NCBI GenBank assembly: GCA_017651185.1
Contig: JAGCDJ010000006.1
Location: 137,766 to 201,765, forward strand
DNA length: 64,000 nucleotides
Direction: 5' to 3'
Source: Bacteroidales bacterium
GTDB taxonomy: Bacteria; Bacteroidota; Bacteroidia; Bacteroidales; ML635J-15
The position numbers were made by a program, and so were the translations under genes. The notes under the pieces were generated by a model. That model was not told the origin of the DNA, did not search any database, and worked only from the letters and a program-made list of their open reading frames with translations. Positions 2,717 to 50,330 of the stretch are shown here, one piece after another; the stretch's first letter is position 1; each line of letters begins with the position of its first letter.

Positions 2717-3319
2717 ATGGTAGCGACAAAAAAAACAGCAGCAAAAACTGCGACAAAGAAAACTACAACCACCAAACCGGTAGCAAAGAAGACAACAACG
2801 ACTAAACCTGCCGCAAAAAAGACAACAACAGCAAAGCCGGCCGCAAAGAAAACAACCGTAGCGAAAACTACAACAACGAAAACCACGACAAAACCTGCAG
2901 CAAAGAAAGTTGCTCCAGCAAAGACCGCAGTTGAAATTTCGGTAAATGGCAATAAGAAGATCGGAACACTGATGAAGGAGTTCAACAAGCAGTTCCCATA
3001 CATCCGTCTGGGCATTTTCTACAGTTACGCTCGTCAGGAAGTGGCAAAGGGCGGCACAATATACAACATCGACGCCGACAAGACGCTTGCATCTGTACGC
3101 CGTGCCGATTCAGGAGGCGACATATCCATCAGTGGCAACAAGAAAATCAAGACTTTGGAGCAAGAATTTGACAAAGTTTTCGGTCTTTACGCTCAAGTAT
3201 GCTATACCACTAAGGACGGCCATCGCTACTACACCAGCGGTTCTACTGATGACATGACACTTTCTGCTTTTAACAAAAAGTGTGAAGCAGACGGCTGCAA
3301 GAAAGGAGAATGGAAGTAA
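2717..3319 (+). CDS. Protein with a Lys/Thr/Ala/Pro-rich histone-H1-like N-terminus and two copies of the ~50-aa module
   Basis: The N-terminus has 'KKTTTTKPVA/KKTTTTKPAA/KKTTTAKPAA' repeats. The C-terminus has 'ISVNGNKKIGTLMKEFNKQF' and 'ISISGNKKIKTLEQEFDKVFGLYAQV', matching the module consensus. Confidence 0.7.
   Translation: MVATKKTAAKTATKKTTTTKPVAKKTTTTKPAAKKTTTAKPAAKKTTVAKTTTTKTTTKPAAKKVAPAKTAVEISVNGNKKIGTLMKEFNKQFPYIRLGIFYSYARQEVAKGGTIYNIDADKTLASVRRADSGGDISISGNKKIKTLEQEFDKVFGLYAQVCYTTKDGHRYYTSGSTDDMTLSAFNKKCEADGCKKGEWK
2756..2905 (+). repeat. In-frame 30-bp (10-aa) tandem repeats encoding KKTTT(T/A)KP(V/A)A
   Basis: Three clean 30-nt units plus degenerate ones. Codon usage differs between units, so conservation is at protein level. 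Confidence 0.7.
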
Positions 3320-4362: not shown

Positions 4363-4875
4363 ATGGGACTTCTAAACAATATCATTCCGGGAAAAACGGA
4401 TAAAGATTCGGGGCAACCTGCACCAACCAATGCAAGGGAAGTACAGGAGAATGTAAAAGCAGAACCTAAATACGAAGGATTAAGGTCTCTTGTCCGTTCT
4501 GCGCTGATGAACGACGAAATTTCTGAAAAAACTTTGGAAACATTAAGAAAAAAAGCCGTCAGTCTTGGAATGGATGCCGATGAATTTGAGATACTTTTCA
4601 ATGGACTGGTTGCAAAAAAGAAAAAAGCAGGCAAAAAACCACTTATCGGAAAAGGCGAAGTCAGTTATGACAAATATTTTGATGGTAAAGATTTCGACAA
4701 TGATTTTGACCTTGTATTTTTAACGGAAGAGGAACGGACAGCGAAAAAAAGCAAGGCAAGCGAGGATAAGAGCAGGAAAATAGACGATGTTGTTGGAAAA
4801 GCAAAGTCAATCGGTAAAATTGGCGGCGAAGTTATAGGCAAATTTGGCGGAGAAATTTTGAATAAACTTGGTTAA
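4363..4875 (+). CDS. Hypothetical 170-aa lysine-rich soluble protein; first gene of the KAP cassette
   Basis: ATG start and N-terminal 'MGLLNNI'. Helical segment 'ISEKTLETLRKKAVSLGMDADEFEILF', with a Gly/Lys-rich tail 'GKIGGEVIGKFGGEILNKLG'. It ends 17 nt before the next gene. Confidence 0.6.
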   Translation: MGLLNNIIPGKTDKDSGQPAPTNAREVQENVKAEPKYEGLRSLVRSALMNDEISEKTLETLRKKAVSLGMDADEFEILFNGLVAKKKKAGKKPLIGKGEVSYDKYFDGKDFDNDFDLVFLTEEERTAKKSKASEDKSRKIDDVVGKAKSIGKIGGEVIGKFGGEILNKLG

Positions 4876-5643: not shown

Positions 5644-7404
5644 ATGAAATCAAGTATTATAGATGTGCCTCGTAAATATTCGGAGGCTGATTTGTTTGGT
5701 ATTAAAGTTTACCAAGATGCTTTAATTGATTTTGTAAACTATACGGATACACCAATAACTATTGCTTTGCAAGGCGAGTGGGGAAGCGGAAAGACTTCGC
5801 TGATGAACCAGCTTCGCTATGAGTTGTGCGACAAGGACGGTGCTCCGTATTTCCCAGTATGGATAAACACATGGCAGTTTTCGTTGATGAAGACTCCTTC
5901 GCAGGCAATAATGAGCATACTCGAAGGTTGTATAAATCAGATAGGCGCTTTGAATCCCGAACAGCACAAGTGGGATGAGAGCAAGAAGAAAATAGGTGGC
6001 ATTTTCAAGAAAATGGCTTCCGTTGGTGCAAAGGTTGCCGCTAGTACTATTGGCGTTGATGGTGATGCTGTTGATGACTTGTTTGGTGGCGAATCATCCG
6101 AAAAGTCGGACATAGTGCAACTGAAAGAGGAAATACAGAAACTTGTTGACGGCGCACTCGAGCACGACAAGTCAAGGCGAGGATTCACATTCTACATTGA
6201 TGACCTTGACCGTATCGACCCGCCAGTTGCCGTTGAAATCTTGGAACTCCTGAAGAATATTTTCGACCTCGACAAGTGTGTGTTTATCCTTGCAATCGAC
6301 TACGATGTGGTAATCAAGGGCTTGAAGTCAAAATTTGGAGAACTTACCGACAAGAATGAGCGTGAGTTCCGTGCTTTTTTCGACAAGATTATACAATTGC
6401 CGTTCTCGATGCCAGTTGCTTCGTACAATGTCGATACTTTCCTTATTGACGCAATGAGCAAGATTGAATTTTTCACGGCTGATGAACTTAAGGATAACGA
6501 ACTTGGCGAAAACCTTTCGGAAATTGCCCGTCTGTCGGTAGGCACAAATCCGCGTTCGTTGAAACGACTGTCGAACACCCTCTCGCTTATTTCCATAATC
6601 AATAGGCGTATGCAGGAAGGTGGTGAAAAGAACGAAAAACAAAGCAAGATTGTAAACTTCGCACTGGTATGTATGCAGATTGCTTATCCATACATTTACA
6701 ACCAGTTGGCAGAGGCTCCCGATTTCAAGAAATGGAACGAGGGCATTGCCGCAAAGTTGAAACTTCGCAAACTCACAGCCGACGAGCAGGAAAGTCTTGA
6801 CCAGGCCGAAGAGTTCGACGAAGATTGGGAAAAGGTTTGTTTCCGTATGTGCCAGAAGGAAACCCACCTGAGCAACAGGGCATTCCAAGTTTCACAACTG
6901 CTGAACAAGATAGCGGATATAATAGGCAATGATGCTAATTTGGGCGAGATTATTGCCGCCACCATAGAAATGTCGGCGGTGACAAACCTTAAGGCATTTG
7001 ACACACCCAAGCAGGTGTACAAATTCAACCGCGACCTTAACAATTATAAATTCAACGGAGTGGTATATACAAAGAAGGTGCAGTTGGTATATGCAGTGCT
7101 GGCTAGTTATATTGCTGATCATCCGGGCGATACATTGTCCCAGATACAGTCTGCCTTTGCTGTCAGCCGCAATATGGACTCAATATTTATGTCGCTTGCC
7201 TTACATAAAGAATGCCTAGAACACGACTACAAAAAACTAAGTTTTTTCAAGGATAATTTAAAGGATGAAGATTTGTTGCAGGCCAGCGATACAAAGTTTA
7301 CCGTCACAACCAATTGGCCGACAAGCGTAAGCGGCAAACCTGCTGTCTTTTCCAAATTTCTTGACCTCTGCAAAAAACTCGGATATAATATAAGCGCCTG
7401 TTAA
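5644..7404 (+). CDS. KAP-family P-loop NTPase (586 aa)
   Basis: Walker A 'LQGEWGSGKTSLMNQL' and the KAP-typical Walker B 'FTFYIDDLDRIDPPVAVEILE'. Downstream 'GTNPRSLKRLSN' is typical of the family. No obvious TM insert. Confidence 0.85.
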   Translation: MKSSIIDVPRKYSEADLFGIKVYQDALIDFVNYTDTPITIALQGEWGSGKTSLMNQLRYELCDKDGAPYFPVWINTWQFSLMKTPSQAIMSILEGCINQIGALNPEQHKWDESKKKIGGIFKKMASVGAKVAASTIGVDGDAVDDLFGGESSEKSDIVQLKEEIQKLVDGALEHDKSRRGFTFYIDDLDRIDPPVAVEILELLKNIFDLDKCVFILAIDYDVVIKGLKSKFGELTDKNEREFRAFFDKIIQLPFSMPVASYNVDTFLIDAMSKIEFFTADELKDNELGENLSEIARLSVGTNPRSLKRLSNTLSLISIINRRMQEGGEKNEKQSKIVNFALVCMQIAYPYIYNQLAEAPDFKKWNEGIAAKLKLRKLTADEQESLDQAEEFDEDWEKVCFRMCQKETHLSNRAFQVSQLLNKIADIIGNDANLGEIIAATIEMSAVTNLKAFDTPKQVYKFNRDLNNYKFNGVVYTKKVQLVYAVLASYIADHPGDTLSQIQSAFAVSRNMDSIFMSLALHKECLEHDYKKLSFFKDNLKDEDLLQASDTKFTVTTNWPTSVSGKPAVFSKFLDLCKKLGYNISAC

Positions 7405-9992: not shown

Positions 9993-10600
9993 TGAAAATA
10001 CTAGTTACGGCTTTCGAACCATTTGGCGGCAACGACCTTAACTCGTCGTGGGAAGTTGCATCGCTACTACCAGACGAAATAGACAATTGCTTAATTGTAA
10101 AGGAGTTGCTTCCTGTGAATTTTATGACGGCAGGAAAGGAGTTTCGTGCCCTTATCGAAAAGCATTTGCCCGATGTTGTGGTTTCGCTCGGACAAAGCCG
10201 CAAGTTTGCAGGACTAAGCATTGAGCGTGTTGCGCTAAACCTGATGGACTCTGCAAAACCTGATAATTACGGATATATGCCGCAAAACGAGCCAATTCAC
10301 GCAGATGGTGATATAGCATATATGACGACTATTCCTATCCGCAGGCTTGTGGATGTTTGCAAGCAGAAGGATATTCCAGCGCAAATATCCAATTCGGCGG
10401 GTACATTTGTTTGCAATCGCGTTTATTATGAGGCTCTTTACTTTGTTGCGAAAAAGCATTTCCCGACAAAGACATTGTTTGTCCATCTGCCGTATATTAC
10501 GGAGCAGGAAAAGTCTCCTTCGATGGATAAGGTGGTGCTTGCCGAGGGTATTGCAGAGATTATAAAGGAGATAGGGAATTGGCAATGTGAAACAATTTGA
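9992..10600 (+). CDS. pcp: Pyroglutamyl-peptidase I (pyrrolidone-carboxylate peptidase)
   Basis: 'MKILVTAFEPFGGNDLNSSWEV', catalytic Cys context 'SNSAGTFVCN', and His context 'FVHLPY'. Confidence 0.9.
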   Translation: MKILVTAFEPFGGNDLNSSWEVASLLPDEIDNCLIVKELLPVNFMTAGKEFRALIEKHLPDVVVSLGQSRKFAGLSIERVALNLMDSAKPDNYGYMPQNEPIHADGDIAYMTTIPIRRLVDVCKQKDIPAQISNSAGTFVCNRVYYEALYFVAKKHFPTKTLFVHLPYITEQEKSPSMDKVVLAEGIAEIIKEIGNWQCETI

Positions 10601-10646
10601 AACAAATTCATAACGCATCCTGTTGATAAATGTATTTGTCCCCCTC

Positions 10647-10678
10647 TGTAGGGATGCAATGCATTGCGTCCTTTTTTT
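10647..10678 (+). terminator. REP-like hairpin plus T7 run acting as the pcp terminator
   Basis: TGTAGGGATGCAATGCATTGCGTCC followed by TTTTTTT. The stem is GGATGCAATG/CATTGCGTCC with one G-T pair. It shares the TGTAGGGA head with the elements at 3713-3825. Confidence 0.6.
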
Positions 10679-10710
10679 ATGGGTAGTACAAATGGATAAT
10701 AAGAAAAAAT

Positions 10711-10869
10711 CCGTCCAAGTTCCCAAACAAAATCCGTCCAAGTTCCCAAGCAAAATTCGTCCAAGTTCCCAAGCAAAATTCGTCCAAGTTCCCAAGCAAA
10801 ATTCGTCCAAGTTCCCAAGTAAAAACAAGCCAAGTTCCCAGGTGAAAATCGTCCAAGTTCCCAAATGGA
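10711..10869 (+). repeat. Tandem array with seven copies of a 23-bp unit ([T/C]CGTCCAAGTTCCCAAGCAAAAT)
   Basis: Copies start at 10711, 10734, 10757, 10780 and 10803 (exact 23-bp period), followed by two variant copies up to 10869. Confidence 0.9.
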
Positions 10870-10879
10870 TAAAAATAAA

Positions 10880-10911
10880 TTTGCATAACTCATTTATATG
10901 CAGTATCTTTG
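10880..10911 (+). promoter_or_regulatory. Bacteroidetes-type promoter for the ATPase gene (TTTG -33, TATCTTTG -7)
   Basis: TTTG at 10880-10883 and TAtcTTTG at 10904-10911, with a 20-bp spacer, 25 nt upstream of the ATG at 10936. Confidence 0.5.
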
Positions 10912-10935
10912 CGGTGGATTTAAATATGCTGTTAT

Positions 10936-12213
10936 ATGAGTACTTATAGACATCGAATTGCTGACTATATGTTGGCAGAAAGATTGAGAAGAAAAGGTGC
11001 TGTTTTGGTAGAAGGACCAAAGTGGTGCGGCAAGACAACTACCGCTGCACAGCAGGCAAAAAGCATCCTCTATATGGCCGACCCAATGTCAAGACAGCAG
11101 AACCTTCAGGCAGCAAAAGTCAATGTGCAGCATCTTCTAAAGGGAGAAACACCTCGTCTAATTGACGAATGGCAGATTGCACCATCGCTATGGGATAGTG
11201 TCCGTTTTGAAGTCGATCAAAGGAGTGGATACGGACATTTCATTCTCACTGGCAGTAGTGTTCCGCCTTCAATGGATGATATATTTCACTCGGGAACGGG
11301 CCGTTTCTCCAAATTGAAAATGCGAACGATGTCGCTGTACGAGTCGCAGGATTCATCCGGCGAGGTCAGTTTTAGGGACTTGTTCGAAAATCCACAGTCA
11401 TCGCTTAATGGCAGTAGCAATATAGATATAAACAGATTGGCTTTTCTTATTTGCCGTGGTGGTTGGCCGGGAGCGTTGGATTTGAAGGAAAAAGATGCTC
11501 TTGCTCAGGCTTACGATTATTATGATTTGGTTTGCGACAGCGACATATCCCGTGTTGACAATGTGGAGCGCAACCCGCAGCGAGTCAGATTGTTAATGCG
11601 TTCGTATGCTCGTCATCAGGGGACAATGGCAACGATTGGTACGATACTCGCCGATATGAAAGCAAATGAAGCCAGTTCGTTGTCGGACAATACGGTGTAC
11701 GATTACATAAATGCACTTAAAAAGATTTTTGTCATTGAAGATATGCCGGCATGGAATCCTAACTTGCGTAGCAAGACCGCATTGCGCACAAGCGACAATC
11801 GTTACTTTATAGATTCTGCTATAGCGACGTCTGCTTTGGGCGCAAGTCCCGATGACCTTATTAACGATTTGAATACAATGGGCTTGCTTTTCGAGACGCT
11901 TGCTGTGCGCGACCTTCGTGTTTATGCCGATGCTCTTGACGGGCAGGTGTATCACTATCGCGACAAGAAGGGGCTTGAATGTGATGCCATCTTGCATCTT
12001 AGAAATGGATCGTATGGTCTTATTGAAATCAAGTTGGGTGGCGATGACCTTATAGAGGAGGGGGCAAATTCGCTAAAAAAACTTGCGAACGAAATAGATA
12101 CTACTCGTATGAAATCTCCTTCGTTTATGATGGTGCTTACTGGTGTCGGTGATTTTCCATACAGGAGGGACGATGGCGTTATTGTTGTGCCTATTGGCTG
12201 TTTAAGAGATTAA
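10936..12213 (+). CDS. AAA_14/DUF4143-type ATP-binding protein (COG1373-like) with a C-terminal PD-(D/E)xK-like motif
   Basis: Walker A 'VEGPKWCGKTTTA' and Walker B-like 'RLIDEWQ'. The C-terminal 'GLECDAILHLRNGSYGLIEIKLGG' is a D...ExK nuclease-fold signature. Confidence 0.85.
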   Translation: MSTYRHRIADYMLAERLRRKGAVLVEGPKWCGKTTTAAQQAKSILYMADPMSRQQNLQAAKVNVQHLLKGETPRLIDEWQIAPSLWDSVRFEVDQRSGYGHFILTGSSVPPSMDDIFHSGTGRFSKLKMRTMSLYESQDSSGEVSFRDLFENPQSSLNGSSNIDINRLAFLICRGGWPGALDLKEKDALAQAYDYYDLVCDSDISRVDNVERNPQRVRLLMRSYARHQGTMATIGTILADMKANEASSLSDNTVYDYINALKKIFVIEDMPAWNPNLRSKTALRTSDNRYFIDSAIATSALGASPDDLINDLNTMGLLFETLAVRDLRVYADALDGQVYHYRDKKGLECDAILHLRNGSYGLIEIKLGGDDLIEEGANSLKKLANEIDTTRMKSPSFMMVLTGVGDFPYRRDDGVIVVPIGCLRD

Positions 12214-12215
12214 CG

Positions 12216-12264
12216 AAAAACAAGCCAAGTTCCCAAGTGAAAATCGTCCAAGTTCCCAAATGAA
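12216..12264 (+). repeat. Downstream copy of the 49-bp block that ends the upstream tandem array
   Basis: 12216-12264 matches 10821-10869 at 47 of 49 positions in the same orientation. It starts 3 nt after the ATPase stop codon. Confidence 0.9.
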
Positions 12265-12390
12265 CTAATTTGTATTCGCGTAATTTCTTGGTAATAAATG
12301 AATTTATGTTTTGGTATCTTTTGCGAAATTTTGGCATAAATTTTTTGCGTTGATTCATTGTTCTACGATTTTTACAAATGATTATTTATG

Positions 12391-12398
12391 TATTTTTG
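12391..12398 (+). promoter_or_regulatory. Candidate -7 box (TATTTTTG) for the kinase gene
   Basis: Matches the TAnnTTTG consensus, about 40 nt upstream of the start codon. Confidence 0.35.
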
Positions 12399-12435
12399 CA
12401 GTTGTACTTCAATTTGCATAAAAATATAAGCTGAT

Positions 12436-13845
12436 TTGCCAATGGAACAGACATCGGATTCGGGATTTGTAGGAAAACCGTTTGAGGATAAGAGCACAAA
12501 CGAGTTTACAGATCATGTTGAGATGCCGTGTGGTGGTTTCAATCGTCTGTTCCGTGCGAAGCGTTATGGCAAATGGTTTGTCCTGAAAGGTTTAAAGTTA
12601 GAATATTCATCCAATCCTTTTTACCGTGAGTTGCTTGACAAGGAGTTTGAACTCGGTATGATGCTTTCGCATCCGAACATTGTCACAATTTATGGCAGGG
12701 AATACGATGCCGTTCTTGGCGATTGTATTGTAATGGAGTATGTCGATGGCATGACTTTGACTGATTTCCTTGATTCAAAGCCGTCTTCCGAGGCAGTAAG
12801 GAAGGTCGTTGACGAGATATTGTCGGCAATGTCGTACTTTCACGGCTTGCAGGTTGTGCATCGCGATATAAAGCCTAGCAATATTCTAGTAACGCGAAAT
12901 GGTAACAATGTAAAAATCATTGACTTTGGCTTCTCCGATACCGATTCCCACGCAATTTTGAAGCAGCCTGCAGGAACGGCACGTTACGCTGCGCCTGAGC
13001 AATACGATGAAAATGTTGCAATCGATTGTCGTGCAGATATTTATTCTTTTGGAATGGTTCTGAAGGACATTGTATCGGTTACAAAAATAGGTGGATATAA
13101 AGCGGTCGTGCGAAATTGCATTCAATACGACAGGGAAAAGCGCTATGCAAATGCCACAGAAATCCAGAATGCCATTGCTTTTCGTAGGAAATTGAGGATT
13201 TTGCTTCCGATTGTAATTATCTTGACTACTGTTGTGTGTGCTGCTGTGCTTTGGGGACGCAGTGTGATGAATTCGTCTTCGGATGTGCCTGATATTGTCG
13301 CGGATACCATTGTGAAAGTTGATACTGTATTTTCTGCAAGGTACGATTCAGAACTTGTTGATACTGTTGTTGTTCCGCAAAGGGTTGTTACAATTGTTGA
13401 TGCTGAATACGACACCATTTATGCGCAGTCGCTGTATGACGAGGCGAAAGCACAGATGGATGCACTAAGTGCTGCAACAATAGCAAAAATGTCATCTGAT
13501 ACATTGCTGACAGACGAAGAAGTTGCTGCATATCTTACAATGTTTCTTAATATGTCGCAGAGTAAATGTGATTCTATTGCCTCGCGACTGGAAGATGGCA
13601 GTATGTTGCAATCGCAGTTTGTTTCACACTGGAATGTCTTGTTCGAAAGAAATTTCTTTAATATTCAGGATAAGTACAAGTCTCCTCATTTGTATGATTT
13701 GTACGAAAGTGGTAAAATCACAAAAAACACATATATTGAGGAATTTAAGGGGTTGTGTAAACTTCAATTGGATATGGGCATTATGACAAAAGAACAATAT
13801 GATGAAATGGTAGCTGGAATGAAAAGAGCGATAGAGAATGATTAA
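12436..13845 (+). CDS. Hanks-type serine/threonine protein kinase with one TM segment and an uncharacterised C-terminal domain
   Basis: 'VVHRDIKPSNILV', 'KIIDFGFS' and 'ARYAAPEQ'. TM segment 'ILLPIVIILTTVVCAAVLW'. The ATG at 12442 is an alternative start. Confidence 0.85.
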   Translation: MPMEQTSDSGFVGKPFEDKSTNEFTDHVEMPCGGFNRLFRAKRYGKWFVLKGLKLEYSSNPFYRELLDKEFELGMMLSHPNIVTIYGREYDAVLGDCIVMEYVDGMTLTDFLDSKPSSEAVRKVVDEILSAMSYFHGLQVVHRDIKPSNILVTRNGNNVKIIDFGFSDTDSHAILKQPAGTARYAAPEQYDENVAIDCRADIYSFGMVLKDIVSVTKIGGYKAVVRNCIQYDREKRYANATEIQNAIAFRRKLRILLPIVIILTTVVCAAVLWGRSVMNSSSDVPDIVADTIVKVDTVFSARYDSELVDTVVVPQRVVTIVDAEYDTIYAQSLYDEAKAQMDALSAATIAKMSSDTLLTDEEVAAYLTMFLNMSQSKCDSIASRLEDGSMLQSQFVSHWNVLFERNFFNIQDKYKSPHLYDLYESGKITKNTYIEEFKGLCKLQLDMGIMTKEQYDEMVAGMKRAIEND

Positions 13846-15261: not shown

Positions 15262-15509
15262 TGTTAAGTTTCTTGGTTTCTATGGGCAAAGCCCGTTTCT
15301 GAGTTTCTATGTTTAACGTTTCTAAGTTTGAAATTGTTTGAAATTGTTTGAAGTTGTTTGAAGTTGTTTATGGTTGTTTATTGTTATTTGATGATTTGAA
15401 GATTTGATAATTTGATGATTCTTTGAGTATAGTGAAAAACATTCGTGCTATTCGTGTTATTCGTGGTTATCCTTTCGTTTGAGCGTAGCGAAAACGCCTT
15501 TGCATCTTG
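15262..15509. repeat. Low-complexity 'stutter' intergenic element, family member 1 of 3
   Basis: Contains runs of GTTTGAA[A/G]TT and TTTGAT[G/A]AT, then boxes TTTGAGTATAGTGAAAAAC and TTTGAGCGTAGCGAAAACGCCTTTGCATCTTGTC. These are shared with 24788-25022. Confidence 0.65.
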
Positions 15510-19556: not shown

Positions 19557-19677
19557 TACTTGTGATTTGAAACAAAAATCCGAAAAATATACTTGTGATT
19601 TGAAACAAAAATCCGAAAAATATACTTGTGATTTGGAACAAAATTTCTGAAAATATACTTGTGATTTGAAACAAATG
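19557..19677 (+). repeat. Tandem array of a 33-bp unit (TACTTGTGATTTGAAACAAAAATCCGAAAAATA), about 3.6 copies
   Basis: Copies begin at 19557, 19590, 19623 and 19656. The third is diverged and the fourth is partial. Confidence 0.85.
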
Positions 19678-24787: not shown

Positions 24788-25022
24788 GGAATGTATGTTT
24801 CAATGTTTATGGATTTCTAAGTTTTTTAAGTTTCAAGTTGTTTGATAATTTGAAGATTTGATGATTATTATTTTGAGCACAGCGAAAAATATTTTTGCGT
24901 CTTGTCTGATATTTTACTTCGTTGATGGCTACTTGTGCTGAGCACAGCCGAAGTACGCCGTTCAACTTTTCAACTTTCACTTTTCAACTTTCAACTTTCA
25001 CTTTTCACTTTTCAACTTTCCT
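24788..25022. repeat. Low-complexity 'stutter' intergenic element, family member 2 of 3
   Basis: GTTTGATAATTTGAAGATTTGATGATT and TTTTGAGCACAGCGAAAAATATTTTTGCGTCTTGTC are shared with 15262-15509. GAAGTACGCCGTTCAAC and CAACTTT/CACTTTT runs are shared in style with 50089-50330. Confidence 0.65.
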
Positions 25023-26090
25023 TTATCTCATTATCACCATCGTTGCTCCAAATCCATATTCCCTGAACGAAGCATCTTCGTATGGCAGTTTGTACTGTTT
25101 TTCAAGCGATTCGCGGATTGCATTTTTCAACGTTCCGTTTCCGATGCCGTGAATTAGGACAACTTTCTCTGCCTTGTTCATTATAGCATCGGTCATCGTC
25201 TTGTGGAAAGTCTGCAATTGTATGTTCAGTATTTCCGCATTCGAAAGGCCGATTACGCTGTCAATCAATTTGTTGATATGCAAGTCAACTTCAATTGTTT
25301 CGGGTTGTTTGCGTTTTTGATAACGGTGCGAATTGTCTTCTTCTGCTTCGTCCTTGCGGGCAATCTGTTCCTCAAATTCCTTTTGCGTCTTTATGGAATT
25401 GCCAAGTCCGAGGTCTTCTTTCAGAAGTTCGAAGATGTATGCCTTTTCATCGAAGAAGTCGTTGTCAACAAAAGTGTGTTCCTGGAAGAATTTTATCGGT
25501 GTAATCTTAATTCTGCGTTCCAGCATCTCGTGGTAGGTACAATGCGGATTGTCGTACAGAATGCTTTGGATTATAATTTCCTTGGAGTTGTTGATTTGGT
25601 CGCGCGTGAGTTGTCCAACAAGAATTTTTGTATTTGGTTCAAGGGTTTCAGTATCAATTTTCTCGAATCCGTTTTCGCCACGAAGTACGATGTGGTAAAA
25701 TACAAAGTAGTTGGAGTCGTTCACAAGGTAGCAATCGAAGCCGTCGAACTTGTCGTCATAGTTGCGGATGAAGGCGAACATGTATTCGGTTTTCTGGTCT
25801 TTTTTGATTTCAATCTTTGGTTTGGGAATAATCGTGCCTTCAACCTTTTTTATGTTGTCCTTGAAGTTTTCCTTTATGTTTTCGACTATGTTGTTGGCAA
25901 TTTCCTTGAACTGCTGCTTGGAATTTTCCTTCGTCTTTTCTACCACGACAACCTCTGCCGCAGGAATCGGATATTCAAAATCGTTGTCGTCCCTGACAAC
26001 TATCTGATTTTTAGGAAGTATCTTTACAACTGTTCCTCCGCCAACATCGTTTAGGAACCTAACTTTATCGCCAATGCTAATTAAATCCAT
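25023..26090 (-). CDS. Smr-domain protein (DUF2027-type N-terminus)
   Basis: The C-terminal 'KVVLIHGIGNGTLKNAIRESLEKQY' is an Smr motif. The N-terminal 'GDKVRFLNDVGGGTVVKI' is SH3-like. Confidence 0.75.
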   Translation of the reverse strand: MDLISIGDKVRFLNDVGGGTVVKILPKNQIVVRDDNDFEYPIPAAEVVVVEKTKENSKQQFKEIANNIVENIKENFKDNIKKVEGTIIPKPKIEIKKDQKTEYMFAFIRNYDDKFDGFDCYLVNDSNYFVFYHIVLRGENGFEKIDTETLEPNTKILVGQLTRDQINNSKEIIIQSILYDNPHCTYHEMLERRIKITPIKFFQEHTFVDNDFFDEKAYIFELLKEDLGLGNSIKTQKEFEEQIARKDEAEEDNSHRYQKRKQPETIEVDLHINKLIDSVIGLSNAEILNIQLQTFHKTMTDAIMNKAEKVVLIHGIGNGTLKNAIRESLEKQYKLPYEDASFREYGFGATMVIMR

Positions 26091-46674: not shown

Positions 46675-47847
46675 TCAATACATCAATCCGAAAGCCCACA
46701 GGGGAATAATGTTTCCAGAGCCGAACTCAATGTTGTCCTTTACAATGTAACCTTCTTCCGCATCCGAAATCTGCTTTTTGCCTTTCTTTTTTCCGCCGAC
46801 TTCAAATGTTTTTCCATCAATTTCAAAGTCACTTATGCGGGAATTTATAATGTCGGTTGTTACTCGCAACTGGTTGTAGAAGAAAGTTTCGCGGATATTG
46901 CCAATTTCTGTTGCTTCACCGCCAAGCAAATAAGCAAGGTTTGTGTTGTCGAGGTATACTTTTTCTACTTTTCCAACACCTCTGATGCCACCGGTAGTGT
47001 CGCGGAGTTGACCTATCATACCTGCTTGTTCCATATATAAGAAATAGTCTGGCAAAACATTCCTGCTTACACCGATAATGGTAGCAATTGTGTCCATTAC
47101 AGGTTTGAATGGCGCACTTTGTGAGATTACCGCCAGCAGTTTTTTCAGTTTTCTGCCAGTAGAAACATTCATATTGGCAAATATTGGAATGTCAACTTCC
47201 ATCGTTTGATTTATTACTTGCCGTAGTTTCAGGTCAAAGTCTCCTTCAATTGCAAACGGATAATATCCGTGCTTTAAATACTCTTGAAACAAAGGAAGGG
47301 GATGGCTTACATCTGGAATATTTGCTTTGTGTTCAAGAATTTCGTTTAACGAATACACTTGTACTCCAATTTGATGGAACATATTCAGATATTCCCTGAA
47401 TGATAAACCTTGCATCATAAAAATAGGTGCACGGCGGCTTAGGTCAGCGTATCCTTTATAAATGTCAAGTACCGATGACCCTGTAAATCCGACCTTTAAA
47501 TCGGGATAAGAGTCGTAAATCTGTTTCAGTTCGCGCGACCAGTTTTCGTATTTGTGAATCTTATCTATAAATATCTGTTCCCCGCCTTCTTTCGAAAACT
47601 CATCAACTAAGTCAACAAGTGTATGGGACGAAAAATATATGTGGTCGGCGGAAGCATAAAATATGTTTCTGTCGTTTCTGTGTTCCTTAATATATTGCAA
47701 AATCATTGTGGATTTTCCCACACCGCGCGGTCCTACAAGTCCAAACATACGTGATTCCCAATTGATTTTGGTGTACATATAACGATGAAAAGCAGTGTCC
47801 GTCTGTTGCAGTTGCCTTTCCATATAAGTTGTAATCGAAATGTCCAT
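46675..47847 (-). CDS. AAA_14/DUF4143-type ATP-binding protein (COG1373-like), second copy of the architecture
   Basis: Walker A 'LVGPRGVGKSTMI', Walker B-like 'IFIDKIH', and a C-terminal 'RISDFEIDGKTFEVGGKKKG' nuclease-fold-like motif. Confidence 0.85.
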   Translation of the reverse strand: MDISITTYMERQLQQTDTAFHRYMYTKINWESRMFGLVGPRGVGKSTMILQYIKEHRNDRNIFYASADHIYFSSHTLVDLVDEFSKEGGEQIFIDKIHKYENWSRELKQIYDSYPDLKVGFTGSSVLDIYKGYADLSRRAPIFMMQGLSFREYLNMFHQIGVQVYSLNEILEHKANIPDVSHPLPLFQEYLKHGYYPFAIEGDFDLKLRQVINQTMEVDIPIFANMNVSTGRKLKKLLAVISQSAPFKPVMDTIATIIGVSRNVLPDYFLYMEQAGMIGQLRDTTGGIRGVGKVEKVYLDNTNLAYLLGGEATEIGNIRETFFYNQLRVTTDIINSRISDFEIDGKTFEVGGKKKGKKQISDAEEGYIVKDNIEFGSGNIIPLWAFGLMY

Positions 47848-50088: not shown

Positions 50089-50330
50089 AGTTTGAATATT
50101 TTTAGTTTTGCCGCATTTTTGTCAAATGCCGTGCCAGTGGAAAAATAGTGACATTTTGGCAGATGGGTGCTGACGCCAGTTGTGCCTACGGCGTTTTTGG
50201 GTTTCAATGGCTACGCCGTTTCAAGGTTTCAATGCCTATGGCGTTTCTATGGTTACGCCGTTTCAAGGTTTCAATGCCTGCAGCGTTTCTATGTTTCTGG
50301 TTGTATGGCAAATCTATTAACAAATCCTTC
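50089..50330. repeat. Low-complexity 'stutter' intergenic element, family member 3 of 3
   Basis: Repeated CTACGCCGTTTCAAGGTTTCAATGCC and GGCGTTTCTATGG units. It shares TACGCCGTT(T)CAA with 24788-25022 and GTTTCTATGG with 15262-15509. Confidence 0.65.

Follow-up and report, generated by a model that had tools for sequence, protein, structure and literature searches.

A repeat array of fixed period at the promoter of a DUF4143-type ATPase-nuclease gene of Bacteroidales, a putative operator recurring across the family

A stretch of 64 kb from a Bacteroidales bacterium (contig JAGCDJ010000006.1, positions 137,766 to 201,765; referred to as the window, on which all positions are based) was analyzed with respect to a gene encoding a 425-aa ATPase-nuclease and an array of 23-bp direct repeats located at its promoter. 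Two more units of the same type follow the stop codon. The loci used for comparison are designated by L-numbers (L001 etc.). The gene and the features associated with it are the following:

10706..10866, + strand: upstream array of seven head-to-tail 23-bp units, each consisting of the core CCAAGTTCCCAA and then an A-rich spacer
10715, 10738, 10761, 10784, 10807, 10830 and 10853: starts of the upstream cores
10880..10911, + strand: Bacteroidetes-type promoter, with the -33 element TTTG at 10880-10883 and the -7 box TATCTTTG at 10904-10911
10936..12213, + strand: ATPase-nuclease gene, 425 aa, AAA_14 + DUF4143, PADLOC candidate PDC-S01
11014..11037, + strand: Walker A motif, G27-PKWC-G32-K33-T34, of which G27, G32, K33 and T34 are invariant in alignment A1
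11575..11811, + strand: predicted winged helix-turn-helix, residues 214-292, candidate reader of the units
11947..12039, + strand: PD-(D/E)xK nuclease core, residues 338-368, with E348, D350, E364 and K366; beta strands in the model
12216..12261, + strand: downstream unit pair with cores at 12225 and 12248, the counterpart of the last two upstream units

Tandem Repeats Finder (TRF) detected the upstream array at 10706-10864 with a period of 23, 6.9 copies, 87% matches and a score of 225. The 11-nt core CCAAGTTCCCA had nine exact matches, seven of them at 10715-10863 and two at 12225 and 12248, and no further exact match was found in the whole 64-kb window. When one mismatch was allowed, 12 matches were obtained against 0.79 expected, a number that was reached by none of 100 shuffles. 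The initial annotation of this DNA had described seven upstream units and a motif private to the locus. Both descriptions were correct, and the 23-bp spacing was exact throughout the seven cores. It had also reported a 49-bp direct repeat that brackets the gene, and positions 10821-10869 and 12216-12264 were indeed identical at 47 of 49 nucleotides, with two differences. The ATPase stop codon TAA occupies 12211-12213, so the downstream copy starts at the third base past the stop.

Promoters of Bacteroidetes have the consensus TTTG/TAnnTTTG. In the window, the -7 box lies 32 nt ahead of the ATG, the core of the last unit ends 15 nt 5' of the -33 element and the array ends 71 nt ahead of the ATG. 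The units are purely direct, and no inverted repeats involving them were found at the window locus. Known types of elements were considered and rejected. An RNA element was ruled out by the absence of any Rfam match at E<=1 in 10300-12600 and of single-strand structure in the array (z-score 0.58). Clustered regularly interspaced short palindromic repeats were ruled out because the units are contiguous, with a 23-bp period equal to the unit length and without unique spacers. Neither terminal inverted repeats nor a transposase were present in the module, which excluded an insertion sequence or a miniature inverted-repeat transposable element, and an integron attC site was excluded on anatomy.

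The layout of the window was repeated in independent assemblies of the same species (L001-L004), therefore it is not an assembly artefact. Seven upstream units were present in the window and L004, and six in L001 (5741-6000). In L002 (6799-6899) a run of N lies inside the array, with at least eight units around the scaffold gap. These copy numbers (6, 7, 8 or more) reflect either real polymorphism or short-read collapse, and they are soft evidence because short-read assemblies can collapse arrays.

The 425-aa protein matched the Pfam families AAA_14 (E=1.5e-13, 51.3 bits, cut-off 27) and DUF4143 (E=3e-31, 108.8 bits, cut-off 28.1), as well as the PADLOC profile PDLC04790 (PDC-S01) across residues 1-423 (E=6.9e-62), and nothing above the cut-offs was found in NCBIfam. 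It is a clear member of PADLOC candidate PDC-S01 and has more than 8000 homologues. PDC-S01 is described as an ATPase fused to a PD-(D/E)xK domain and a candidate for phage defence with experimental validation pending, and it is very abundant in rumen Bacteroidales and archaea (PMC12988326, PMC13356809). DUF4143 is listed among the PD-(D/E)xK families of unknown function (PMC3424549). Literature searches on the DUF4143/PDC-S01 family found no description of a cis element, repeats or autoregulation.

Residues G27, G32, K33, T34, D77, E348, D350, E364 and K366 were invariant in 71 sequences from two DUF4143 subfamilies, and the catalytic residues of the Walker A/B and PD-(D/E)xK motifs are intact in the window protein. 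The invariant E348, D350, E364 and K366 substantiate the PD-(D/E)xK-like tail (ECDAIL...LIEIKLGG) that the initial annotation had recognized. The AlphaFold2 model of the protein had a mean predicted local distance difference test (pLDDT) score of 68; it was poor over the N-terminal 130 residues and reached 75-87 in most of residues 214-292. This region was modelled as three helices (214-226, 234-244 and 251-263) and a beta hairpin (267-270/289-292), and the predicted winged helix that they form sits between the ATPase and a beta-rich C-terminal domain. Weak Foldseek matches were obtained to Cdn1/Card1 and PspGI (nuclease) and to Orc1/Cdc6 (AAA+ plus winged helix). Fur/PerR winged helices were matched locally, at a root-mean-square deviation of 4.4-4.8 over ~95 residues and with the model at pLDDT 68.

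The association between array and gene was analyzed by a protein-first look-up, in which homologous proteins were found first and their DNA was read only afterwards. Five orthologues (97%, 85%, 82%, 82% and 83% identity) were located in five unrelated neighbourhoods, and 3-7 units lay directly upstream in all five of the protein-first orthologues (81-97% identity). Over about 40 loci, the orthologues of 60-97% identity in unrelated contexts all carried 2-8 units against the promoter. The last core ended 68-73 nt and the -7 box 29-34 nt ahead of the ATG in more than 25 orthologue loci, and the 12-nt core was conserved down to ~65% protein identity while the spacer varied. In 18 of 21 orthologue loci, nucleotide homology to the window began inside the array (10751-10808) and ran to the stop codon or to a point just ahead of it (12201-12215); in the three loci that diverge most, the homology did not extend to one or both module ends. 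Homology that begins in the array and ends at the stop codon shows that array, promoter and open reading frame (ORF) form one discrete module of ~1.45 kb. The array belongs to the gene rather than to the genomic site.

A scan for the DNA pattern itself, covering one genome per species and requiring two perfect cores 23 bp apart, gave at least 119 loci, nearly all from rumen or gut Bacteroidales. Matches outside the Bacteroidota (Saprospirales, cyanobacteria, Chloroflexi) were excluded as unrelated repeats because their cores overlap at 8- or 15-bp spacing. Among the matches listed there were 98 Bacteroidota arrays, of which 38 were followed by an ATPase gene and 10 by ATPase fragments, four lay directly after an ATPase stop codon, six were too near a locus end to be assigned and 40 were without an ATPase. 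We also considered the motif as the target of a defence protein in phage DNA. This was rejected, as a two-core scan of IMG/VR gave two matches, neither beside an ATPase homologue.

Arrays were not restricted to the 425-aa type. A 451-aa DUF4143 gene in L008, ~20% identical to the window protein, had its own 33-bp repeats upstream (3050-3137) and again from 12 nt past the stop (4556-4646). Homologues of this gene with 50-65% identity in other genera had three ~33-bp units each, ending at the promoter. In relatives of this subfamily down to 27% identity, 2.5-4.3 direct repeats of exactly 33 bp were found at the promoter, with clade-specific sequences. Of the loci found in IMG/VR, 23 were of the 425-aa type (40-65% identity; protein-first scan) and 31 of the 451-aa type (27-49% identity; alignment-based scan), and most of them showed 2-9 direct repeats abutting the promoter, with a period of 22-24 bp in the 425-aa type and exactly 33 bp in the 451-aa type. 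When viral contigs were scanned with the 451-aa or the 390-aa ATPase as a single protein, no match was obtained, and one locus resulted from scanning metagenomes with the 451-aa paralogue. In L152 and L163, whose hosts use Shine-Dalgarno sites and sigma-70 boxes (-35/-10), it is the -35 box that adjoins the array.

The initial annotation had suggested a search for other DUF4143 genes with private repeats, and these turned out to be frequent. In a pattern-independent sample from which near-duplicates were removed, a TRF-detectable array within 260 nt upstream was present in 28 of 48 DUF4143 genes and in 7 of 44 other genes of the same loci (odds ratio 7.4, Fisher p=3e-5), the first fraction being a lower bound because TRF misses several arrays visible by eye. 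The best period was 23 or 33 in 27 of these 28 genes. Across the sequences compared, the period is fixed per subfamily and the unit sequence changes with the protein clade, e.g., GCCAAGTTCCCAA, GCCAAATTTCCAA, GCCAACTCTCGGAA, GCCAACTACCGCAA, TCGGAAGT, AAATTGCCAAATGAAA and GCACAAAAAGCATCA.

Some further observations concern this family. Homologues of both DUF4143 subfamilies with arrays were carried by 54 IMG/VR contigs (L151-L173, L180-L210), some of 40-107 kb, which represent either genes carried by phages or prophages or misclassified cellular DNA. The window contains four head-to-tail 33-bp units TACTTGTGATTTGAAACAAAAATCCGAAAAATA at 19557-19676, with the core GATTTGAAACAAAA, which are like the units of the 451-aa subfamily (L150, ACTTGCCTCCGATTTGAAACAAAAAT). 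No ATPase remnant after this array was detected by tblastn in the window, and the next ORF is unrelated; it looks like an orphan array left after gene loss. A second AAA_14 ATPase gene of 390 aa, without a Pfam hit to DUF4143, is located at 46675-47847 on the - strand. Two 19-nt palindromes TTGCACTAnnATAGTGCAA, 32 bp apart (47940-47922 and 47908-47890), lie directly upstream of its -7 box TATATTTG (47882-47875). This pair is another private, operator-like promoter element of a related ATPase, but with inverted symmetry.

To find a candidate reader of the units, proteins with the CCAnnTTCCCA core were compared with those beside other units. The widest gap between within-group and between-group conservation was at residues 231-260. 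Among 22 positions that were fixed in the group and different elsewhere, eight fell at residues 235-262 (28 of the 425 residues), where ~1.4 would be expected if they were evenly distributed. Residues 235-262 correspond to helices 2 and 3 of the predicted winged helix, i.e., the recognition helices. The L008 genome also holds two unit types, and each of them adjoins its own gene. Because of the co-variation in the recognition helices and the two unit types beside their own genes, the product of the gene itself is the most economical reader.

We therefore consider it fairly probable that the 23-bp units form an operator array, similar to iterons, to which the AAA+/winged-helix/PD-(D/E)xK protein encoded by the gene itself binds. 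The protein carries the parts needed, namely an AAA+ ATPase, a predicted winged helix and an intact nuclease motif, and we infer the protein-DNA recognition from linkage and co-variation. The initial annotation had mentioned binding sites of the encoded protein as its second option, and the comparison favours this option through gene linkage, the fixed distance to the promoter and the co-variation of the winged helix. The reader would act via the winged helix predicted between the AAA+ and nuclease domains, and protomers would bind head to tail, one per unit. One protomer per unit, with the period set by the protein, could account for a period that stays fixed at 23 or 33 bp although the unit sequence drifts. 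As the array ends at the upstream promoter element, its occupancy should control transcription of the gene. Occupancy might repress the gene, which would be negative autoregulation of a potentially toxic nuclease. The sign of this effect is a guess, and we favour repression for a nuclease whose gene has been deleted so often.

Several points weigh against binding by the gene's own product. Of the 98 arrays listed, 40 had no adjoining ATPase, and unless all of these are relics, something in trans may read them. No array was detectable at some members of the family, including L153/L154 and the 393-aa gene of L008. The bracketing of genes by repeats, which recurs as described below, is not predicted by simple autoregulation. 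The samples of loci are non-random, since the loci came from a pattern scan that needed two perfect cores and from IMG/VR contigs. The clustering of group-specific positions could reflect a fast-evolving surface unrelated to DNA reading. Finally, with a mean pLDDT of 68 the structural model is moderate in quality, and its fold matches are weak.

The origin of the downstream copy was analyzed by comparing the flanks of the module, which are as follows:

10650-10673, + strand: intrinsic terminator of the upstream pyroglutamyl-peptidase gene (terminator scan), left boundary of the module
12262..12441, + strand: intergenic stretch to the kinase gene, holding the kinase promoter with the -7 box TATTTTTG at 12391-12398
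12442..13845, + strand: Ser/Thr protein kinase gene (Pfam Pkinase), right-hand neighbour, outside the module

The neighbours within ~8 kb encode a KAP NTPase, a porin-like protein, an ion channel, peptidase C15, the kinase, a HAD hydrolase, an enoyl-CoA hydratase and a lysine aminomutase, and none of them has a recombinase domain, as the initial annotation had stated. The KAP-family NTPase gene (5644-7404) is intact in the window and L002 (586 aa), and in the near-identical L001/L003 (L001 734-2492) it is split into ORFs of 237 and 360 aa.

The numbers of upstream and downstream units were 7 and 2 in the window, 4 and 3 in L008/L060, 4 and 4 in L078 and 7 and 3 in L118, and three downstream units were found in L124. 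Among the orthologues compared, units past the stop were limited to the window's own clade (at least 92% protein identity), in which all share the downstream kinase gene. No downstream units were found in L013, L015-17, L174 and L177, nor, among the matches listed, in pattern-found orthologues of less than 92% identity. Four of the five protein-first orthologue lineages (at least 81% identity) had no downstream copy, and the same was true of nearly all more distant ones. With regard to relatives having the gene and no flanking repeats, which the initial annotation had regarded as evidence against its cassette proposal, such relatives exist for the downstream copy, and the upstream array was never missing in orthologues. 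Since most orthologues are without the downstream copy, the units have no att symmetry, the gene has its own promoter and no recombinase was found, the bracket is a lineage-specific by-product and not a defining structure. The att-like flanking sites suggested earlier are contradicted by the same features, the units being purely direct and without inverted symmetry.

An empty site, for which the initial annotation had recommended a search in relatives, was found in a related rumen Bacteroidales genome (L046). The kinase gene served as an anchor for the comparison of occupied and empty sites (gene calls in L002/L004, blastn against L046). In L046, blastn homology ran from 13154 to 12225 of the window and then from 10772 to 10645. 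The first segment comprises the kinase, the intergenic stretch 12262..12441 and the downstream units; this intergenic stretch is homologous to the sequence on the right of the single L046 array. The second comprises the first upstream units and the terminator hairpin of the peptidase gene, which also flanks this array. Thus, the site in L046 is exactly empty, a single uninterrupted array of three units being present there and the ATPase absent. It is either the product of a loop-out between two arrays or a pre-insertion site, and the data do not decide the direction.

Remnants of the gene were found at many loci. An array followed by only the last 18-90 ATPase codons, with differing end points, was present in L026, L051, L062, L113, L137, L089, L097, L121 and L140, and in L045 and L110 array and promoter were retained together with no more than the last few codons. 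Loss of the ATPase gene has been frequent, by repeated deletions. Two loci of Aphodosoma, L035 (4400-4727) and L049 (6190-6560), were colinear with L177 (1000-2640) minus the ORF, within ~5 nt of start and stop. They keep the array, the promoter and the 5' leader, followed by the post-stop sequence of L177, and their -7 box is decayed, which fits loss rather than a pre-insertion state. Gene-less or remnant arrays (L083, L106, L139, L140, L141, L045, L110) were often located beside restriction-modification-like or other defence-like genes, as judged by eye from N-termini. A module living in defence islands fits those neighbours.

The bracket of the window probably arose, on balance, by homologous recombination between arrays of the RecA type. 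The two post-stop units are a second copy of the same array and not att sites, and the copies would recombine by unequal crossing-over, gene conversion and loop-out. Such recombination between arrays could account for the 47/49 identity, the apparent differences in copy number and the empty-site allele. The unit type ..ACAAGCCAAG.. is common to the penultimate upstream and the first downstream unit of the window and was absent from other genomes, which resembles gene conversion between the two arrays. When upstream and downstream arrays were compared within and between genomes, duplication and integration both fitted.

Bracketing recurred in three further genes, two in L008 and one in L163, and in each case no more than 12 nt separated the stop from the downstream copy. 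In L008/L060 (3050-7745 in L008; also L009, L010), DUF4143 genes of 451, 425 and 393 aa, ~20% identical, are arranged in tandem upstream of the kinase gene. Each is bracketed by its own direct repeat, which is an array of 33-bp units at the first, an array of 23-bp units at the second and a 40-nt copy of the kinase promoter at the third, and the downstream copy starts 3-12 nt past each stop. The 393-aa gene is inserted in a stretch homologous to 12262..12441, between 95%-identical 40-nt copies, the first of which ends at the ATG and the second of which starts 3 nt past the stop. This sequence is single-copy in the window, which has neither the 451-aa nor the 393-aa gene. In L163, from a different host type, two units 23 bp apart start 11 nt past the stop.

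Composite arrays were also found. A second unit type with a 23-bp period, CGCCAACTCGCCGAA, adjoins CCAAGTTCCCAA units at L026, L028, L031, L032, L043-L045, L051, L062, L128, L137 and L140; it is promoter-distal in a clade of 80% identity and promoter-proximal in a clade of 62% identity. L042, L111, L129 and L136 have still more mixed series of units. The stacked CCAAGTTCCCAA/CGCCAACTCGCCGAA arrays suggest successive alleles or cross-regulation between paralogues.

The initial annotation had viewed the gene as a cassette that split a repeat array. In such a model the arrays are recombination sites, and a circular [array-promoter-ORF] or [repeat-ORF] enters a resident repeat and leaves by the reverse reaction, through host homologous recombination or the encoded nuclease in a homing-like manner and without a dedicated recombinase. 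The exact empty site L046, whose flanks match both flanks of the window, the recurrence of the bracket around two L008 genes and in the other host type of L163, and the three unrelated DUF4143 genes in a row in L008/L060 with a bracketing repeat for each are in agreement with it. The sharp module ends in many unrelated contexts, the ORF-precise presence and absence between L177 and L035/L049, and the composite arrays, which look like successive arrivals at one site, also point in this direction. However, the upstream array stands alone in most orthologues, a recombinase is absent and the units lack inverted symmetry. Many gene-less arrays are deletion relics with differing end points in the ORF (the L026 group, L089, L097, L045, L110, L121, L140), and the decayed -7 box of L035/L049 fits loss. 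Furthermore, duplication followed by loss would equally yield these patterns. Insertion and deletion are not told apart by the data. Mobility of this kind appears unlikely as the explanation of the arrays, and the version driven by the encoded nuclease is clearly improbable.

Alternatively, the array may be a promoter architecture read by another factor, either a separate trans regulator or phased A-tract curvature resembling an UP element, with co-inheritance as the link to the gene. In every case the array adjoins the upstream promoter element, each unit has an A-tract, perfect cores are kept in the 40 gene-less arrays among the matches listed, and several further intergenic regions of the window hold tandem repeats. 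However, within L008 the subfamilies have different unit sequences, the unit sequence follows the protein clade and not the host, and the arrangement survives a switch between Bacteroidetes-type and sigma-70-type promoters. A conserved 12-nt core with a variable spacer exceeds the needs of curvature, and by our own arithmetic neither a 23-bp nor a 33-bp period is in phase with the helical repeat. This alternative is rather unlikely, a little more so than a mobile cassette.

The two functions could also be combined. Modules may address themselves, with the array of own sites serving as an autoregulatory platform and as the homology or target for insertion, excision and swapping at hot spots without a recombinase, possibly with their own nuclease cutting in a homing-like manner, and the period would be set by oligomer geometry. 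The three bracketed genes of L008, the exact empty site, the ORF-precise gains and losses and the stacked arrays of two types would all follow from such modules. We regard this as a speculative proposal with a low probability.

A role of the array in the replication or partition of an extrachromosomal module, as an iteron- or centromere-like site at which the protein acts as an Orc1/Cdc6-like or Rep-like initiator, is very unlikely. Direct repeats of ~22-23 bp beside an AAA+/winged-helix gene, the weak Orc1/Cdc6 fold matches and the homologues on IMG/VR contigs would fit. Against this, the contexts are chromosomal on all long contigs, no Rep or partition domain was found in Pfam and NCBIfam, and the extra nuclease domain together with an array exactly at the promoter fits regulation better. 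Neutral repeats produced by replication slippage, for which the seemingly variable copy number between near-identical strains could be cited, have almost no probability, being contradicted by a core conserved to ~65% protein identity, the fixed promoter position, the constant period in the family and the enrichment (p=3e-5).

Other tandem repeats in the window, mostly intergenic, are located at 15326-15420, 24961-25024, 50183-50293 and 898-1147, with periods of 10/20, 7/14/21, 25/42 and 69 bp.

If the units are bound by the gene's own product, as we favour, the arrangement would resemble known systems in its logic, and as far as these analogies go it belongs to none of them. The DnaA boxes at dnaA and Orc1/Cdc6 with its origin boxes likewise combine an AAA+ protein with a C-terminal (winged) helix-turn-helix, a predicted one in the window protein, and an array of asymmetric sites at its own gene, and at dnaA the sites give autoregulation with oligomers along the DNA, as would be proposed here. 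In contrast to these, the window protein adds a PD-(D/E)xK domain and is not an essential initiator, and the sites, at which binding would be by analogy, are strictly tandem, fixed at 23 or 33 bp and private to a clade rather than universal.

The iterons of plasmids R6K, pPS10 and F likewise consist of 3-8 direct repeats of ~22 bp by the gene of the presumed binder, with replicon-specific units and variable copy number, and the 23-bp units agree with the iteron pattern of tandem direct repeats (~17-22 bp) beside such a gene. However, the window system has no Rep-family domain, is chromosomal, and its array abuts a promoter rather than an AT-rich unwinding element. In parC-ParR of R1 and sopC of F, tandem repeats at the promoter or after the gene are likewise both assembly site and operator and are private to each cassette, whereas the present module is a single-gene AAA+ ATPase-nuclease, not ParA/ParM with an adaptor, and has no plasmid context. 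Integron gene cassettes (attC) are likewise single-gene units in variable contexts with repeats at both ends in some lineages and with occupied and empty sites, but the window gene has its own promoter, direct repeats without inverted cores, no integrase and mostly no downstream copy. Judging from the literature searched, the repeat array is new to the description of PDC-S01. It represents a cis element that occurs across the family of a very common ATPase-nuclease and had not been described before, and the mechanism that we propose for it is well motivated, though inferred.

PDC-S01 is reported to rank fourth by frequency among the candidate defence systems in prokaryotes and to be the single locus found most often in rumen microbiomes (PMC12988326, PMC13356809). 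The private promoter array of fixed period provides a concrete candidate DNA ligand and a testable regulatory logic for this system. It also suggests how oligomers may be placed on DNA, with one protomer per 23 or 33 bp. Furthermore, the array can serve as a simple marker by which intact, decayed and lost copies of PDC-S01 are annotated. If arrays do drive the gain and loss of these genes, they would exemplify how single-gene defence modules move without the machinery of mobile elements.

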